Both the position numbers and the translations under genes were made by a program. Below the pieces are notes generated by a model. The model had not been told where the DNA came from and did not search any database. It was given only the letters and a program-made list of their open reading frames with translations. From positions 12,206-76,205 of the forward strand of contig JAAYDY010000113.1 of NCBI GenBank assembly GCA_012729015.1: a stretch of DNA of 64,000 bases, written 5' to 3'. The DNA is from Phycisphaerae bacterium (lineage in GTDB: Bacteria > Planctomycetota > Phycisphaerae > FEN-1346 > JAACEH01). Positions 2,159 through 39,616 of this stretch are shown here, piece by piece. Within the stretch, counting starts at the first letter, position 1. Each line of letters starts with the position of its first letter.

Positions 2159-5100
2159 TTATGGTTTCCCGGATTCGTCGTGCTCGGACAGCTCCTTGCC
2201 CAGAGGCGCCGTCGGCACGGGCTTGCCTTGGTCCAGCGCCTCCAGCTTCCGCGGCACCAGCTCGCGGATCGACTGCTCGTCCCGCTGCAAACGCACGTTC
2301 CGTCGCTCCAGCAACTCAGCCGCACGCCGGTACGCCGCACGCGCCTCGTCCCGGCGGTTCAGCCGCACCAGCGTGTCGCCCAGGTGGTCCCAGATCACAG
2401 GGCTCGCCTGCGGGCTCAGACGCACGCTCCGCTGAAGGTACACAAGTGCCTGGTCCAGGCGATTCTGCTTGTAGAGCACCCAGCCCAGGCTGTCCAGCGT
2501 GGCCGACGACTCGGGATTCTCCTGGAGCGACAGGCGGATCATCTGCTCACTCTCGGCCAGCCGCACGCCTTGGTCGGCCCACATGTAGCCGAGGTTGTTG
2601 TTGACGCCGCTGTCGCGCGGGCGCTTCTTCAGAATGGCCTGCATCAACTCTTCGGCCTTCTGCCGCTCGCCGCGGCGGTCGTGCCACGACGCCAGCAACT
2701 GCATCGCCTCGGCGTCGTCCGGCTTGGCGGCCAGCATCGTGTCGATAAGCTTGCGAGCCTCGTCGTACCTCTCCATCGACATCAGCACGTCGGCCCGCAG
2801 TTGCCGGGCGCCCTCCTCGAACGCGGCCATGGCCTCCAGGCGGTCGATGACGGACATCGCTTCGTCCGACGCGCCGCGGGCCTCCAGCAGCATGGCCCGG
2901 TAGTACAGCAGGGCGCCCAACTGTTCCTCGTCCGCCGTCTGGTCCAGGCCGCGATCCAGGGCCAGCAGCGCCCCGTCCACGTCTCCCTGGTCCCGAAGGA
3001 ACAGCGCCATCTCGACGTACGGCCGCGACGACGTGGGGTCGGCCTCGATCGATTCCTCCATCATCGCGCGGGCCTCTGCCGTGCGACCAATGCGGGCCAG
3101 AACGCCCGACAGATTGTACCGCGACCCGTTGTCGCCCTGGTTCAGCTTCAGAATCGTGCGATACGTCATGATCGCATCCGCGTCGCGATCCACCATCTCG
3201 TAGATCCGCGCCATGCGACGGAAGAACACGCTTTTCCACCCGAGGCTGTCCAGCCGCTCCACGGCCTCGCGCGATGCGTCCAGCGCATCCATCAGGCGAT
3301 CCAAGCGGATCAGCACGGCCGTCAGACGCTCGTACCCGCGCGTGAACCCCGGGCTCACCTCCAGCAGCCTGCGGAAATCCTCGGCCGCCGCCGCCGGATC
3401 GTCCACCTGGGCCACCATCCCCAGCACGAATGCCGGCCCGGGGCCCGACCGCAACTCGTCGGCCAGCAGCGTGCGCAGCTCGGTGAGCACGGCCCGGCGA
3501 TCCTCGATCGTGTCGATGAAGTCCGCCAGTTGCCGCACCATCGCGTCGAGCTGCTCGATCTGCTGTTCCTGCTCGTCGGCCTCGCGCCGCAGCCGTTGGA
3601 ACTCCTCCGGCCCCGTGTCGTCCCTCGACTGGAGCCGCAGCAGCCGTGACTGCGCACGCCAGTACTGTGCCTCGCAGTCCTTCTTCTCCGAGACGGCCTG
3701 TGCGTACAGCTTGAGCACGTGCGCCGGCTGCCGCCCGGTCTGATAATAGGCCAGCAGGCTCTTGCGTGCCGCCCCGACCACCACCGGATCGGACGACACG
3801 ACCAACTCCTCCAGGAGCTTTGCGCCTTCGTCGCCACGACCCATCTGGATCAGCTTCTCGCCGAGCAGCCGCGTAACGACGGCCAACCCCGGCTGCGCCT
3901 CGTGGAACTCGCGGAACCGCTTCAGGAACATCTCGTCGTCGCCCAGCTTGTCGCAGACCTGTTTCAGCAGCTCGTAGCTCTCGGCGTCCGTCGGCCATCG
4001 CCGCTGCACGGCCAGCGCCAGCTTCAGGGCCGCCGCGGCGTCGCCCTTGGTCAGCAACTCGGTGATCGTCACGGGCATCGAGCTGTCGGCTACGCGGCTG
4101 GGCAGACGCGGGTCGGCTCCGTCGAGCACCGCCTCGATCATCGTCACGCCCGCCTCCACGTCGCCGGTCCGCAACAGCTCCTGGCCCAGCAGCATCCGGA
4201 TCACGCTCAGCCCCGGGTGCCGTTCGGCCAGTTCCCGGAACGTCTGGATGAACCCTTCGTGATTGTTCGATTGGCCATACACCCGGGCCAGCAGATGATA
4301 GGCGGCCTCGTCATCCGTGCGCCGCCGCTGAATCTCCAGCGCCAGGTGCAGCGCCAGGTCGTTGTGCTGGTTGTTCAGCAGCCACAGCACCGCCGACGGG
4401 CCGAGACCCGGTTTCTCCAGGACGCCGGTCACGTCCTTCAGCAGGGCGACTGCCTTCGCCGGCTCCTTCACGCGCATGTAGAGCTGCACCGTCCGCCCGA
4501 CCAGCACGTGCAGAAACTGCGGATCGACCATGCGCGCCAGTTCGGCGTCGCGCTGCATCGCCGCCGGCGACTTGTCCAGCCAGCGGGCCAGGCGGTCGTA
4601 TGCGGCAGCCTCCTCGGCCATGTTCTTCCGCGATGCGTGGATGCGGCCCAGAAGGTAGAGCGACAGCCCCACGAAACGGTCTGATGCCGCGTCCTTCGAT
4701 TTCTCGATCACCTGGCGGAAGCAGTCGGTCGCCTTGTCATAATCGTTCTGGTTCAGGTGATGCCTGCCCAGCCCGTAGAGTGCCTCGGTGTCGTCCGGGT
4801 CGGCGGCCAGGACTTGGGCGTAGAGCTCCTGCGATTTGGCGGCGTTGCCCTTCTGCTGGTACACGTCCGCCAGCTCGCGCAGAATCAGCGAACTGCCGGG
4901 ATCCAGCCGGGCAGCCTCTTCGAGTTCGCGGATGGCCTCGTCGAATCGCTCGGCGGCGATGTGCTCGCGCGCCAGGGCGTAGTGGTACACGGCCTGGGCT
5001 TTGTCCTCGTCGGACACGTCGGGGCGGGGGGCTGCCGGCTCTGGCGGTTTCTCGGCGGCGGGCGGCTCGGCATTGTTCTGCCCGGCGCCGGTCGTCGGCG

Positions 5101-32791: not shown

Positions 32792-32829
32792 GGGCCGCCC
32801 AGGGCGTCCACGACGCGGGCAAGGTCGGC

Positions 32830-33130
32830 CGTGTGAGTGTGCCACGGCGGGTCTTGCCCGCCGTGCCCATCCGGAGGAGCCCCACGGAACGCGGAGCAAG
32901 CGGTCCTCTGGCGCCGCTGTACAGATCGTCCCCTGCACATGACGCCGTGAACGTTTGAGAACGACGTAGCGCATCGCACGGCGGGCCTGCGGTCCGAGAC
33001 TGTCCGACAATTCGCCGTGCGTAACATACCGTGAAATATGGCGATACGACACCACGGGCGTAGGGTGGCTGCTTGCAGCCACGCGGAAGGGCACGGAGAC
33101 TTGCCCATGCCTGACGGGGCAGGCATGGCA
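32830..33130. repeat. Cluster of GC-rich hairpins (REP-like) between convergent flotillin and PIG-L genes
   Basis: It includes GTGCCACGGCGGGTCTTGCCCGCCGTGCC at 32839-32867 (a family copy), GTAGGGTGGCTGCTTGCAGCCACGCGG and CCATGCCTGACGGGGCAGGCATGG stem-loops. Confidence 0.6.
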
Positions 33131-35746: not shown

Positions 35747-35871
35747 TCGCCTGGCGACCGTCACGGTCGGCGACGCCGCGCCGCCGCGGCAGGGCAGGCT
35801 CCATTGCCAGACGCGCCTTGCAGCCGCAGGGCGCAGGCGGTAGAATGTGCGCCGTTCCGTGCATGACACAT

Positions 35872-35949
35872 CGGGGTGTAGCTCAGTTTGGCTAGAGCGC
35901 CTGGTTTGGGACCAGGAGGTCGCAGGTTCGAATCCTGTCACCCCGACCA
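35872..35949 (+). tRNA. tRNA-Pro (anticodon TGG), CCA encoded
   Basis: The cloverleaf was folded by hand: acceptor CGGGGTG/CACCCCG, D-arm GCTC-AGTTTGGCTA-GAGC, anticodon arm CCTGG-TTTGGGA-CCAGG (anticodon TGG), T-arm with TTCGAAT loop, discriminator A and CCA. Confidence 0.9.
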
Positions 35950-35954
35950 CTAAC

Positions 35955-35984
35955 AAAAAAACCGCCATTTGGCGGTTTTTTTAT
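35955..35984 (+). terminator. Rho-independent terminator after tRNA-Pro (AAAAAACCGCCATTTGGCGGTTTTTTT)
   Basis: A perfect 6-bp GC stem with TTT loop, flanked by an A-run and a 7-T run, is visible directly. Confidence 0.85.
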
Positions 35985-36188
35985 CAGTGGTAGAGCAGGT
36001 GAGCAGGAGAACAGGTGAACAGTAGAAACGGCAATGCCCTTTTGCTATCATGGCATCCATGGGCAAGGTGGACAGCTGCTCAACTGCGGTCACCTGCTCC
36101 CCTGTTCGCCTGCTCAGCGGTTGCCGCTCCGGAAGAGGATGGCTGCGGGACGGCCATGGCATCTAGCATCATTGCGTAGAGAAAACAG

Positions 36189-36530
36189 ATGGAAACCCAA
36201 ATCGCGGCGCAGGATCTCGTGTACGACGACGGGGAGATGGCAATCGCGCTCGTGCAGCGTCCGTCCGACAGTTCCGGACCGCACCTGGCCTTGCGATGGC
36301 TTGCGCCCCAGCCGTGTGTTGACAGGGACGGGAAAGAAGTCTGCACCACAAACCTCATGGGAGGGGAAACCGATTGGTTCATCGTTCCTTTCTCACTCGC
36401 GGTTGGGATTGCCAGAACTCTGATTGAGCAGAAAGCGGCAGGACTTGGCAATTTCAACAACGACGGCTTCGCCAAGATGGTGTCTTGGCTCGTCGGTCTT
36501 GACCAACTCCAGGACGCCATGTGCTACTGA
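36189..36530 (+). CDS. Hypothetical protein (113 aa), island-borne
   Basis: It has a balanced amino-acid composition, unlike the R/S/P-rich overlapping frames, and moderate GC3 of about 70%. No family is recognised. A REP-like element starts right at its stop codon. Confidence 0.35.
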   Translation: METQIAAQDLVYDDGEMAIALVQRPSDSSGPHLALRWLAPQPCVDRDGKEVCTTNLMGGETDWFIVPFSLAVGIARTLIEQKAAGLGNFNNDGFAKMVSWLVGLDQLQDAMCY

Positions 36531-36625
36531 CGGCGGGTGGCCGGGCGGAGGCGGGGGAAGGGGAGACGTGCCACGGCGGGTCTTGCCCGCCGTGCCGATG
36601 GGCAGGAATCGTTCGGAGTGCGGCG
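36530..36625. repeat. Roughly 95-bp dispersed repeat, copy A (ACGGCGGGTGGCCGGGCGGAGGCGGGGGAAGGGGAGAC-GTGCCACGGCGGGTCTTGCCCGCCGTGCC...), followed by the GTAGGGTGGGGCCCCCGGACCCACGCGG hairpin at about 36690
   Basis: A near-identical copy is at 38590-38695. The core is a 9-bp-stem hairpin CACGGCGGG-TCTTG-CCCGCCGTG. Confidence 0.8.
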
Positions 36626-36934
36626 CCGTGGGCAGGTGGGTCCTCCGGACCCATTGCATGGACTTGAGAATCAGCGGGTAGGGTGGGGCCCCCGGACCCA
36701 CGCGGGACGTTGCGGTAGCGCGGCCGGGTGCGGGGATGTCCTGCAGGCCCATGACGCGCGATTGGCGGGCTATGGCGTCGGTGGAGCGCAGGGGCAGGCT
36801 CTCCCTCATGGTTGCGACCTTCGACCGTCGGACCGGGTCGCCTGCGAGTTGCCCACTGGGACCGAGTGGACGCCGTCCGACGAGCGAGTCTCATCCCGCG
36901 TGGTTCCGGGGGGGGCATACCACAGGAGGGGAAA

Positions 36935-36980
36935 AAGGGTATACTGTCCCCGATAGTAAGGGTATACTGTCCCCGATAGT
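36935..36980. repeat. Tandem 2 x 23 bp AAGGGTATACTGTCCCCGATAGT (right half of the palindrome GGGGACAGTATACTGTCCCC)
   Basis: Read directly from the sequence. Its inverted partner is tandemly repeated at 38535-38586. Confidence 0.85.
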
Positions 36981-37142
36981 ACGTGGTGCCGCGCTGGTAC
37001 CACGGGATGGCATTAGAAAAATGTCGATGACGATGAGCCGTCTGGAGCACGCCAGCCCAGCCAGCCACGATTTCTTTCTGAAGTCTTGTGGCCCATGGTC
37101 CGATATTGATGTAGAATAACGGCGTCCACTGGAGGGGACACA

Positions 37143-37346
37143 ATGGCCATACGCAAGAAAAATGAAGCGACCAAGCCGTCCAAGAAGACCGCCGAAGCAC
37201 TTCTGAAAGAAGCTATGCGCCATCCCGGTGTGGCCGAGGTAATGAAAATCTACGGCGACCTTCAGGAGGTTGTGCAGAGTGCGGCCCCCTACGTTGCTGC
37301 TATGGACGAGAAGCCCGTGCTACTCGTCTCAACATCGTCTGACTAA
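37143..37346 (+). CDS. Hypothetical small protein (67 aa), first gene of the low-GC cassette
   Basis: A GGAGGGG Shine-Dalgarno lies 7 nt upstream. It is 17 nt upstream of the protease gene and shares its low GC. The protein is Lys/Ala/Glu-rich with no recognised family. Confidence 0.5.
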   Translation: MAIRKKNEATKPSKKTAEALLKEAMRHPGVAEVMKIYGDLQEVVQSAAPYVAAMDEKPVLLVSTSSD

Positions 37347-37363
37347 CCGCGATCGGAGGGTGC

Positions 37364-38446
37364 ATGGGTGACTGGGGCGAAGTCCTGGAAGAGCTTACAG
37401 AGTCTGCCAAGCAAAACAACGGGCGTCTTCAGTTTGACCTCATACGACGGAAGTACCTAACGCTGCTTGCCGAGCATACGGGAAGAAGCACGATCCTCTA
37501 TGCCTCAAAGTTTACACAGCCTACCCAACAGCCCATTGGCCAGTTTGTGACGATTTCTGATGGCGACCTTCAGGGCATCATGACGGTCATCCATAAGCTT
37601 CCAGGAAAGAAGCTGGACCTCATTCTTCACAGTCCCGGCGGTTCCCCCCAAGCAGCAGAAGCGATTGTTTCGTACTTGAGGTCGCGCTTTTCACACATCA
37701 GAGTCATCGTTCCCCACCTGGCGATGTCTGCCGCGACCATGATAGCTTGCGCTGCCGATACCGTCGTTATGGGTGAGCACTCGTTTCTCGGACCGATTGA
37801 CCCTCAACTCGTTTTCAATGCAGGCGTGGTGCCAGCGGAGGCGATTCTCGATCAGTTTGATCTGGCCAAGAAGGAGTGTGTCGACCCTAAGAATCTGGGA
37901 GCGTGGATGCCCATGCTTCCGCAGTATGGGCCTGCACTATTAGTGCAGTGCCGTCATGCGCTCGACCTCGCAAGGCAATTGGTCGAAGGCTGGTTGCGTA
38001 CGTACATGCTGAAAAGTGATCCCCAAGGACCTGCGAACGCCAAGGCAATTGCCGATTGGCTTGGCCAACATGGACACTGGAAGAGTCACAGCCGTCACAT
38101 CCCACGCGAGGAACTGAGGAATAGGGGCCTGAGAATTGAAGACCTCGAAAAAGACAACAAAGCGCAAGACCTAATCCTGTCAGTGTTTCATGCCACAACC
38201 CACACGCTACAAGCGAGTACCGCCGTGAAGATTATAGAGAACAATCTCGGAAGGGCGTACATCAACCATTACAGCACGGCTCAGGCGAAAGCAACAGCCC
38301 CTTCGCAACCAGAAACACCGTCTCCTGCTTCACCCCTAACCCCGAAGAAGAGCAAGAAGAAGCCCGGCCGCAGAACCACGAAGAAGGTTGCACCCAAATC
38401 GGCAAAGGGCCAGAAGGGCCGTGTACAAAAGAAGAGCAAGAGCTAA
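37364..38446 (+). CDS. SDH/S49-family Clp-fold serine protease with Lys-rich (histone H1-like) C-terminal tail
   Basis: LILHSPGGSPQAAEAIVSYLR matches the SDH-family H[ST]PGG motif of the ClpP/crotonase fold, as recalled from memory. The candidate catalytic Ser is in PHLAMSAATMIACAAD. The C-terminal 45 aa are PKKSKKKPGRRTTKKVAPKSAKGQKGRVQKKSKS. GC is visibly lower than the surrounding genome. Confidence 0.65.
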   Translation: MGDWGEVLEELTESAKQNNGRLQFDLIRRKYLTLLAEHTGRSTILYASKFTQPTQQPIGQFVTISDGDLQGIMTVIHKLPGKKLDLILHSPGGSPQAAEAIVSYLRSRFSHIRVIVPHLAMSAATMIACAADTVVMGEHSFLGPIDPQLVFNAGVVPAEAILDQFDLAKKECVDPKNLGAWMPMLPQYGPALLVQCRHALDLARQLVEGWLRTYMLKSDPQGPANAKAIADWLGQHGHWKSHSRHIPREELRNRGLRIEDLEKDNKAQDLILSVFHATTHTLQASTAVKIIENNLGRAYINHYSTAQAKATAPSQPETPSPASPLTPKKSKKKPGRRTTKKVAPKSAKGQKGRVQKKSKS

Positions 38447-38534
38447 ACGCCGGGTGCCATTGCCGCTTGGGCGATGCTTCAGAGCGACGGCATTCCACCC
38501 GCCGGACCGTCAACAACTGCGGCGACCAGAATCG

Positions 38535-38586
38535 GCCAATGGGCCAATGGGGACAGTATACTTGGGCCAATGGGGACAGTATACTG
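38535..38586. repeat. Tandem GGCCAATGGGGACAGTATACT repeats (left half of the palindrome GGGGACAGTATACTGTCCCC), inverted partner of 36935-36980
   Basis: GGGGACAGTATAC occurs at 38549-38561 and 38572-38584. GGCCAATGG occurs three times. Confidence 0.85.
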
Positions 38587-38589
38587 ATT

Positions 38590-38695
38590 ACGGCGGGTGG
38601 CCGGGCGGAGGCGGGGGGAGGGGAGACTCTGTGACTGTGCCACGGCGGGTCTTGCCCGCCGTGCGGACGGGCGGGGATCGTTCAGGGGGCGGCGC
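38590..38695. repeat. Roughly 95-bp dispersed repeat, copy B
   Basis: It aligns to 36530-36625 apart from a 9-bp insertion (TCTGTGACT) and a few substitutions. Confidence 0.8.
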
Positions 38696-38776
38696 AGACA
38701 CGGACTGACATGACGTTGGCCGAACACAACTGCGGATCTGTAGCCCACACACTTCTGACAGCGACGTGTCGTATCG

Positions 38777-38803
38777 CACGGCGGGCAAGACCCGCCGTGG
38801 CAC
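38777..38803. repeat. Inverted-orientation copy of the CACGGCGGG-loop-CCCGCCGTG hairpin element
   Basis: CACGGCGGGCAAGACCCGCCGTGGCAC is the reverse complement of the family core. Confidence 0.7.
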
Positions 38804-39147
38804 GGAAACTCGATGCTCCCCCGCCACGTTGTCTCCAATCCGTTTACATCTCACATCCGTTCCCACTTCTCGGGTCCGGTGTTCGTTGGCGATGGGCAGG
38901 GGCCGAGGGGGATCCGGCCGGAGAGTTGCCCCGAGAGTCCCCTGCGGCAGGGCATTGACGACTCGGCCGATGTGACGTTTGTCCGACGAGGTGAACCTTT
39001 CTGAGTGCCAAGCGGGTGGCACGACTCCGGGCAGGATGTAGTGGGCTTCAGGGGCCATCGCACCACCTATGGTGTCGGCGGGCGTTGCCTGGGGTCTGGA
39101 GCCGGGGCCTGGGAAAAACCCTGTTTTTTCTTCAGAAAAGAGGAAAA

Positions 39148-39183
39148 GGCTTGACATGGGGTTACAAAATGTATTTTATGTTT
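39148..39183 (+). promoter_or_regulatory. AT-rich sigma-70-like promoter candidate (TTGACA-N17-TTTTAT) upstream of merR
   Basis: cTTGACAtggggttacaaaatgtaTTTTATgttttgc sits in a roughly 110-bp AT-rich patch (39110-39220), which is striking in this GC-rich genome, about 120 nt upstream of the merR ATG. Confidence 0.4.
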
Positions 39184-39304
39184 TGCAAAGCACAACACAC
39201 ATTTCGTGCCGCGGCGGGGGCGGGCGCGGCAGTCAGGTCGAAACGTGATTCTGTCAGTGATCGAACACCGAGTCGTCAGGCCCTACTGAAGAGAGGTTCT
39301 CGCA

Positions 39305-39616
39305 GTGAGCGAATCGTGCGCGTCTTGGGCGGGTTGGCGTCCTCCCCCGAAACTCTACCGCATCGGAGAGGTGGTTCGTTACAGCGGCTTCTCGCGGCAG
39401 ACGGTCCACAACTACACGACGATGGGCCTCATCCGGGAAGAGGAGCGGACCGAAGGCGGTCACCGCATGTACGGCGAGGACGTCTTTCGCCGCCTTGCCG
39501 TCATCAAGGCCCTCAAGGGCAACAAGACTCTCGGTCAGATTCGACGGATTCTGGAAGATGAAACGTCCGAGGCGTCGGTAGCCGCCATCCAGGCGGCCGG
39601 CGCAGCGGTTCGGTAG
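39305..39616 (+). CDS. MerR family transcriptional regulator
   Basis: It has the HTH LYRIGEVVRYSGFSRQTVHNYTTMGLI followed by a coiled-coil. Confidence 0.7.
   Translation: MSESCASWAGWRPPPKLYRIGEVVRYSGFSRQTVHNYTTMGLIREEERTEGGHRMYGEDVFRRLAVIKALKGNKTLGQIRRILEDETSEASVAAIQAAGAAVR

Follow-up and report, generated by a model that had tools for sequence, protein, structure and literature searches.

Repeats of probable TIRtron type on both sides of a horizontally acquired protease cassette in a Phycisphaerae genome

Two sets of short tandem repeats in opposite orientations bracket a two-gene cassette in contig JAAYDY010000113.1 of a Phycisphaerae bacterium (assembly GCA_012729015.1). This raises the question of what these repeats are and to which DNA they belong: to the cassette as its own ends, to a target site that an insertion divided, or to the sequences on either side. 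The window referred to below is the whole stretch of 64 kb that was analysed. The repeats likely represent two orphan dimers of terminal inverted repeats (TIRs) of the type found in TIRtrons, the elements of the TIRYT transposases. The latter are HUH/Y1 enzymes of TnpAY1 subclass 2.1, which is Group 1 of the RAYTs, the tyrosine transposases that are associated with repetitive extragenic palindromes (REPs). The cassette, in turn, probably lies between the ends of two separate repeat modules that face each other, and neither between ends of its own nor between the halves of a split target. The two repeat arms and the DNA between them comprise the following features.

36935-36980, minus strand: left arm, two identical tandem 23-nt units AAGGGTATACTGTCCCCGATAGT
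36939-36951 and 36962-36974: left-arm cores GTATACTGTCCCC, the minus orientation of GGGGACAGTATAC
36981-38539, unstranded: low-GC segment, about 54% GC against about 68-70% outside, its limits being the inner edges of the arms
37143-37346, plus strand: open reading frame (ORF) of 67 aa with no family match
37364-38446, plus strand: ClpP-like SDH-type serine protease of 360 aa (PF01972) with a lysine-rich tail
about 38533-38539: partial linker copy GGCCAAT, directly upstream of the right arm
38540-38585, plus strand: right arm, two identical tandem 23-nt units TGGGCCAATGGGGACAGTATACT
38549-38561 and 38572-38584, plus strand: right-arm cores

The four cores are real, non-random repeats. Allowing up to two mismatches, the 13-nt core GGGGACAGTATAC was matched four times in the window, each time exactly, against a chance expectation of about 0.21 matches, and four matches were reached in none of 100 shuffles. 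All four copies belong to this one locus, where two tandem 23-nt units stand on each side of the cassette. The tandem arrays that a preliminary description of this DNA had reported on the left and right flanks are thus both present, the right one preceded by the partial linker copy. The period is 23 nt in both arms. The 10-nt linkers, GATAGTAAGG and TTGGGCCAAT, are unrelated, and the arms have the 13-nt core alone in common. With + denoting the orientation of GGGGACAGTATAC, the layout of the window is '-- cassette ++'. The GTATAC end of the core points leftward in the left arm and rightward in the right arm, away from the cassette, and the GGGG ends point toward it. The preliminary description had taken the half-sites to be oriented as a splitting insertion would leave them, which predicts GGGGACAGTATAC for the left flank and GTATACTGTCCCC for the right flank; the window holds the reverse. 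When the arms were folded on their own, the left arm did no better than shuffled sequences (z of about +0.7), and the right arm did so only weakly (z of about -2).

The same motif is present in many other genomes. A scan of one representative per species (GTDB) with the pattern GGGACAGTATAC-N6-16-GGGACAGTATAC returned 75 loci across many phyla, with hits in Alpha-, Gamma-, and Deltaproteobacteria, Campylobacterota, Verrucomicrobia, Nitrospirae, Bacteroidota, and unclassified bacteria. It is a common dispersed repeat, unlinked to the cargo found in the window, which speaks against the insertion model of the preliminary description. Clustering of all ORFs near the motif revealed a protein family of about 220 aa that adjoins it in 23 of the 75 loci. 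This family matches PF01797 (Y1_Tnp, the IS200-like Y1 transposase) and scores 80.2 bits against NF047646 (REP_Tyr_transpos, the REP-associated tyrosine transposase), for which the cutoff is 80. Meanwhile, the score of the motif-linked proteins against the IS200 model NF033573 is 16.7 bits (cutoff 55). An alignment of 15 members displayed invariant NHVH (the HUH motif), Y-x-E-x-NPV (the catalytic tyrosine motif), and WSS.

The transposase loci typically have the layout '++ gene --', with the GGGG end outside and the GTATAC end toward the gene. On the upstream side (gene on the plus strand) they carry one or two + units of the form (GG)AATTCCG-GGGACAGTATAC-YTAATT, often after a partial GGGGACAG. 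The last upstream unit is directly followed by a -35-like TTGACA and then by the ORF, and one to four - units GTATACTGTCCCC stand downstream, the first of them adjoining the stop codon (TAA or TAG). With the stop codon and TTGACA placed at repeat edges, the expression signals of the transposase gene therefore overlap the repeats. The stop codon was seen within the conserved flank of the first downstream unit at loci L002, L010, L044, L056, L057, L069, and others. The same polarity is displayed by an independent, annotated TIRtron on an Iodobacter plasmid, which reads GGGGTCAGAGCAAA...gene...TTTGCTCTGACCCC. The plasmid search returned only distant TIRYT homologues (at most 36% identity) and two degenerate motif copies, and the tandem motif was not found in viral contigs.

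Gene-less '++ --' palindromic doublets of the same core also occur. Four perfect-palindrome doublets of about 110-170 nt were found in the Inquilinaceae chromosome OZ252296.1 (L011, L016, L060, and L065). Their linkers vary from copy to copy and are exactly mirrored between the arms of each copy, which suggests that one arm was copied from the other, for example by hairpin-templated synthesis. One of these natural doublets forms a perfect hairpin of -69 kcal/mol. Among the 53 converging (+/-) neighbour pairs of the collected loci, 35 have gaps of 16-136 nt, as in doublets, and 17 have gaps of 706-833 nt, in agreement with the loci that carry the transposase. For the 21 diverging (-/+) pairs, gaps vary broadly from 18 to 4680 nt, as for ordinary DNA between elements. 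The genes within diverging pairs of other genomes are ordinary, miscellaneous, and unrelated, and inner GC content lies below that of both flanks in about 10 of the 21 pairs, with about 7 expected by chance.

The preliminary description regarded tandem doubling as unusual, but this repeat family shows it often: of 156 neighbour pairs in the same orientation, 94 are no more than 20 nt apart, a count biased by the scan pattern, which required a tandem pair at every locus. Flanks of the GTAATCAG type are rare (2 of 304 units). The 10-mer CTGATTACGG, with a flank of this type, follows the right '++' arm both at 38585-38594 of the window and at 5907-5916 of L053, a locus from an Erythrobacter metagenome-assembled genome. 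A candidate structure in which the core lies inside a hairpin with a conserved loop was rejected: in a covariation test of the core flanks only the pair -5/+15 showed a modest pairing excess (0.14), and no convincing stem emerged.

RAYT-like genes flanked by TIRs have been named TIRtrons, and their enzymes TIRYTs, by Di Nocera et al. 2013 (PMC3733652). The same paper gives GGGGWSAS, that is, GGGG[AT][CG]A[CG], as common to many TIRs and describes TIRs as occurring in 'dimers or clusters', at times as dispersed families. Doubling is thus part of the published picture as well. The repeats of the window agree with it: GGGGACAG is present at all four copies and fits the consensus, the units come as dimers or clusters, and dispersed copies without a gene occur. 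In addition, the identical 13-mer flanks Y1 transposases with NHVH, W[QE], Y-x-E-x-NP, and a WSS tail in other genomes. In Quentin et al. 2018 (PMC6006769), TIRYT is equated with TnpAY1 subclass 2.1 and with the Group 1 of Bertels, and the signatures of subclass 2.1 are NHVH, W[EQ], YIELNP, an SS tail motif, and a C-terminal helix-turn-helix-like domain. Bertels et al. 2017 (PMC5581495) describe Group 1 as the most widely distributed RAYT group and as the most insertion sequence-like of the RAYT groups proper. One group reported the transposases of Group 1, or subclass 2.1, to be without REP-like partners. A full-text search of the open-access literature for the 12-mer GGGACAGTATAC or its reverse complement gave no relevant paper, so the extended 13-mer GGGGACAGTATAC, which contains it, appears to be undescribed.

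The window differs from a TIRtron in three respects. It holds no transposase gene, its arms face away from the genes that they enclose, with the GGGG ends toward the cassette instead of outside, and its units are fused to lineage-specific high-GC modules, here named S262 and R100. Read against the polarity of the family, this orientation puts the cassette outside both arms, and S262 and R100 'inside'. The modules and their copies are located as follows.

36530-36672, plus strand: left copy of R100 (R100+), about 143 nt, containing the hairpin CACGGCGGGTCTTGCCCGCCGTG
36673-36934, unstranded: S262, 262 nt, about 70% GC, adjoining the GTATAC side of the left arm
38590-38695, plus strand: right copy of R100, beginning 4 nt past the right arm, on its GTATAC side
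38775-38804: diverged inverted copy of the R100 hairpin (diverged inverted repeat 38775-38850)
near 32843 (about 32813-32878): further R100-like sequence
5430-5573 of L108: copy of R100 at a second locus

R100 is a lineage-specific repeat of about 100-145 nt, whose GC-rich hairpin CACGGCGGGTCTTGCCCGCCGTG occurs four times in exact form in the window. An inverted repeat of 19 nt (36689-36707 and 36894-36912) lies close to the ends of S262. When metagenomes were scanned with the left unit, only the present locus and one more, L107/L108, were returned. At this second locus, S262 together with the first left unit recurs at 2941-3223 of L108 with 91.6% identity (the copy of S262 itself spans 2941-3204). 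The homology ends immediately past the - unit and gives way to other low-GC cargo, which carries DapA-like and BNR/sialidase-like genes. This cargo is followed by the R100+ copy, the end of which abuts another - unit and a partial unit, and then by more low-GC DNA. Meanwhile, the nearest homologous cassettes (61-67% protein identity) still encode the small ORF together with the protease and lack the repeat motif, a further finding at odds with the preliminary description. Because the same module and unit precede different cargo at L108, and cassette homologues are without the motif, it is the module, not the cargo, that the unit accompanies. The repeats accordingly belong to the flanking modules and not to the cassette.

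More generally, units in this Phycisphaerae lineage stand at the ends of high-GC non-coding modules, with the GTATAC ('inside') end facing the module and the GGGG ('outside') end facing low-GC cargo. In three junctions of the two loci, the outer edge of a unit is exactly where the cargo begins, and L053 offers a similar case. Some smaller observations concern the modules themselves. R100 was found placed directly after stop codons (e.g., that of ORF113) and beside TIR units. The first 30 nt or so of S262 resemble the tail of R100+ (36635-36653 compared with 36682-36700). Rfam searches of the window and of 35800-39400 returned tRNA only, and R100 was without a match.

Several observations weigh against the identification of the arms as orphan TIRs of separate modules. 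Neither tblastn nor a six-frame profile search (E of at most 10) detected a TIRYT gene in the window, and there is no named planctomycete among the 75 genome loci; a cognate enzyme in this genome is accordingly putative. No complete '++ module --' element was seen in the lineage, where modules carry units at one end only. The Erythrobacter locus L053 displays the same '-- small low-GC cargo ++' layout as the window. Finally, the drop in GC content matches the positions of the arms within a few bases on both sides, which a unit made of cassette and arms predicts likewise.

By analogy with IS200/IS605 and with the REP-associated transposase of E. coli, the units would be recognition or cleavage sites for a TIRYT acting on single-stranded DNA (ssDNA). 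The arms of the window may be relics, or they may serve in trans a transposase whose gene lies elsewhere in the genome, outside the 64 kb. They may also mark junctions at which foreign low-GC DNA was joined repeatedly. This proposed role of the ends in joining foreign DNA is the weakest step, since the genes between diverging arms are miscellaneous and GC dips at about 10 pairs where about 7 are expected. The coincidence of module-bound units with the borders of foreign DNA is so far a correlation at two loci, and joining foreign DNA is a candidate function. If activity underlies the association of modules with borders, TIRYTs would contribute to the acquisition of genes. The TIRYT clade described here combines a near-invariant 13-nt core across phyla with tandem doubling and with perfect gene-less doublets that resemble REPINs. 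In one planctomycete lineage, its probable units are fused to lineage-specific non-coding modules at the exact borders of foreign DNA.

The alternative that survives best, although we consider it unlikely, is that arms and cassette form one mobile unit that arose by capture of the cassette by a TIRYT. A Y1 transposase would have cut a donor between the centres of two neighbouring '++ --' clusters and pasted '-- cassette ++' at the present position. The low-GC segment ends within a few bases of both arms, and the arms are alike in core and copy number and different in their linkers, as halves of different clusters would be; linkers are indeed cluster-specific within one genome. The layout of L053 and the low-GC cargo of L108, which likewise starts directly after a unit, are also in its favour. 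However, the left unit is part of a repeat of S262 plus unit that is common to a locus with different cargo, and the polarity runs counter to what the elements with a transposase show. The closest homologues of the cassette have no motif, and all contigs with an identical protease (10 aligned of 15 on record) match the window from 36673 at the latest. The unrelated, ordinary genes of the other diverging pairs, and their GC counts, do not favour a captured cargo either. If the unit were mobile, one would expect a circle junction in which GGGGACAGTATACT is joined to AAGGGTATACTGTCCCC, or an empty joint of GGAGGGGAAAAAGG and GATTACGGCGGG (or a joint that keeps the arms).

A broader proposal fares somewhat worse, and we regard it as improbable: that the TIRYT-type units at the ends of S262 and R100 in this planctomycete are junctions where a Y1 transposase captures or exchanges foreign cassettes. 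Such activity would explain why cargo starts at the unit edge at the three junctions of the two loci, why one module is followed by differing cargo, and why the '-- cargo ++' layout recurs in an unrelated alphaproteobacterium. If true, this would be a cassette system on ssDNA driven by an HUH enzyme and not by an integron integrase.

We give very little credence to the idea that the repeats are operators of a regulator of the host or the cassette, such as the MerR-family protein encoded at 39305-39616, which would loop or insulate the cassette. Tandem sites with a period of 23 nt (about two helical turns) on both sides of a transcription unit would suit an operator. Furthermore, the last upstream unit of TIRtrons abuts the -35-like TTGACA, so units can occupy promoter regions. 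However, the core is conserved across phyla together with a Y1 transposase and not with any regulator, and relatives that lack the motif show synteny for the MerR gene and the genes around it. Between the left arm and the first start codon of the cassette, downstream of it, there are 162 nt, and no promoter-like element was seen to overlap this arm.

The proposal of the preliminary description, that the cassette was inserted site-specifically into the 20-bp palindrome GGGGACAGTATACTGTCCCC with duplication of the central GTATAC, draws on the inverted 13-nt core that both flanks share, palindromic GTATAC included, but it is almost certainly wrong, since insertion between GGGGACAGTATAC and TGTCCCC would not leave the GTATAC ends outward, the unrelated linkers are not complementary, the motif is widespread and tied to a Y1 transposase rather than to this cargo, and no intact palindrome was found, either as the 18-mer GGGACAGTATACTGTCCC in 109 fetched loci (about 300 core copies) or as the 20-mer in viral contigs. 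Converging cores are at least 16 nt apart, this being the smallest gap. For a modelled joint of right arm and left arm, the fold has -31 kcal/mol and is interrupted by two bubbles of mismatched linker, against the -69 kcal/mol of the natural doublet. The flanks do rebuild the 20-bp palindrome, as had been stated, when the right one is joined to the left one as on a circle; across the insertion they do not. The fallback offered in the same description, paired recombination or binding sites for a recombinase or regulator, was right in kind insofar as the core forms the conserved portion of repeats around TIRYT-type genes. The enzyme, however, is HUH/Y1 and belongs neither to the serine nor to the tyrosine recombinases, and the pairing of the arms is unsupported. 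An attractive but mistaken split-palindrome insertion system is thus replaced by a documented class of repeats.

Comparison with related systems places the repeats further. REPINs and REPtrons (RAYT Groups 2 and 3) likewise have inverted pairs of short repeats around a single HUH/Y1 gene, as well as gene-less inverted doublets able to form long ssDNA hairpins. Unlike canonical REPs, the units of the window carry no 5' GT[AG]G tag (no GTAG or GTGG foot) and do not form a hairpin each. The TIRYT-linked core is nearly invariant across phyla instead of being species-specific. Canonical REPs are present in high copy and dispersed in the genome; the copies of the core seen within the 64 kb number four, all at one locus. 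IS200/IS605 elements (TnpA_IS200) share the PF01797 catalytic superfamily and presumed ssDNA chemistry. Their own ends, however, are subterminal hairpins on one strand and not inverted repeats, and they carry their own tnpA, with or without tnpB. The arrangement also recalls the attC sites of integrons, with promoterless-looking accessory genes of foreign composition, structured repeats between them, and a substrate that would be single-stranded. It differs in that the associated enzyme is HUH/Y1 and not a tyrosine recombinase and in that two or three cargo units are all that was seen. On reading 38447-38700, attC core sites (RYYYAAC, GTTRRRY) did not appear.

Between the arms lies a protease cassette that was acquired horizontally. 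Its small ORF and the gene of the SDH-type protease constitute a conserved two-gene module (37143-38446 in the window; L101, L103, and L104 elsewhere): other metagenome contigs likewise have a homologue of the small ORF, 66-72 aa long, ahead of the protease. Databases contain more than 3000 relatives of the protease family; those with a named source are mostly from Planctomycetota, with one from Verrucomicrobiota. The cassette proteins gave no defence-system match in PADLOC. The distance from the last - unit to the first start codon of the cargo is 162 nt at both loci (36981-37142 in the window and 3224-3385 in L108). Both spacers start with a short hairpin and are unrelated in sequence, and the agreement may be a coincidence.

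Two contigs from different samples, L097 (3583-3864) and L081 (1254-1537), are reciprocal mosaics of the two S262 loci when compared with 36673-36957 of the window. A site-specific break at 36672/36673, suggested by these contigs, was withdrawn after a four-way alignment placed the switch points inside S262, within identical stretches of 49-70 nt. Because of this position, L097 and L081 are homologous recombinants or assembly chimeras. As far as their sequences go, they say nothing on site-specific recombination, and users of these contigs should treat them with caution. A search for a full-length protein identical to the DapA-like fragment of L097 found none.

The repeats, modules, and cassette lie beside a tRNA gene, in a setting defined by the following features.

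35872-35949, plus strand: tRNA-Pro(TGG), at the left edge of the accessory stretch
35937 to about 39116: accessory stretch of 3.2 kb, holding ORF113, the repeat modules, and the cassette
39305-39616: MerR-family gene

The DNA stems from a Phycisphaerae population, represented by a metagenome-assembled genome, of anaerobic-digester-type metagenomes. In some strains the agreement with the window ends at 35937, 13 nt short of the end of tRNA-Pro, and other genes and no tRNA are found upstream. In relatives whose TPR protein is 76% identical, synteny begins only at 39116 and extends rightwards, and the motif, R100, and the tRNA are absent there. The divergence of strains at 35937 and the synteny of relatives from 39116 thus delimit an accessory islet beside a tRNA gene, from 35937 to about 39116. 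The replacement to the left of 35937 is probably an island or a rearrangement at tRNA-Pro. An empty site was sought by exact-protein look-ups for ORF113 and the MerR-family protein, which gave only contigs that have the cassette or end before it; none was obtained through TPR orthologues, as synteny starts only at 39116.

In the diverging strains L078, L079, L095, L096, and L100, which are otherwise 99% identical, histidine-kinase-like and response-regulator genes stand to the left of 35937. The sequence at this junction resembles a diverged copy of a tRNA 3' end. On the other side, the MerR-family gene, the TPR protein, FlgN, a two-component system, and flagellar genes are syntenic in relatives from 39116 rightwards (L110 and L112), where a gene for a Crp-family regulator is found upstream in place of the tRNA-Pro islet.

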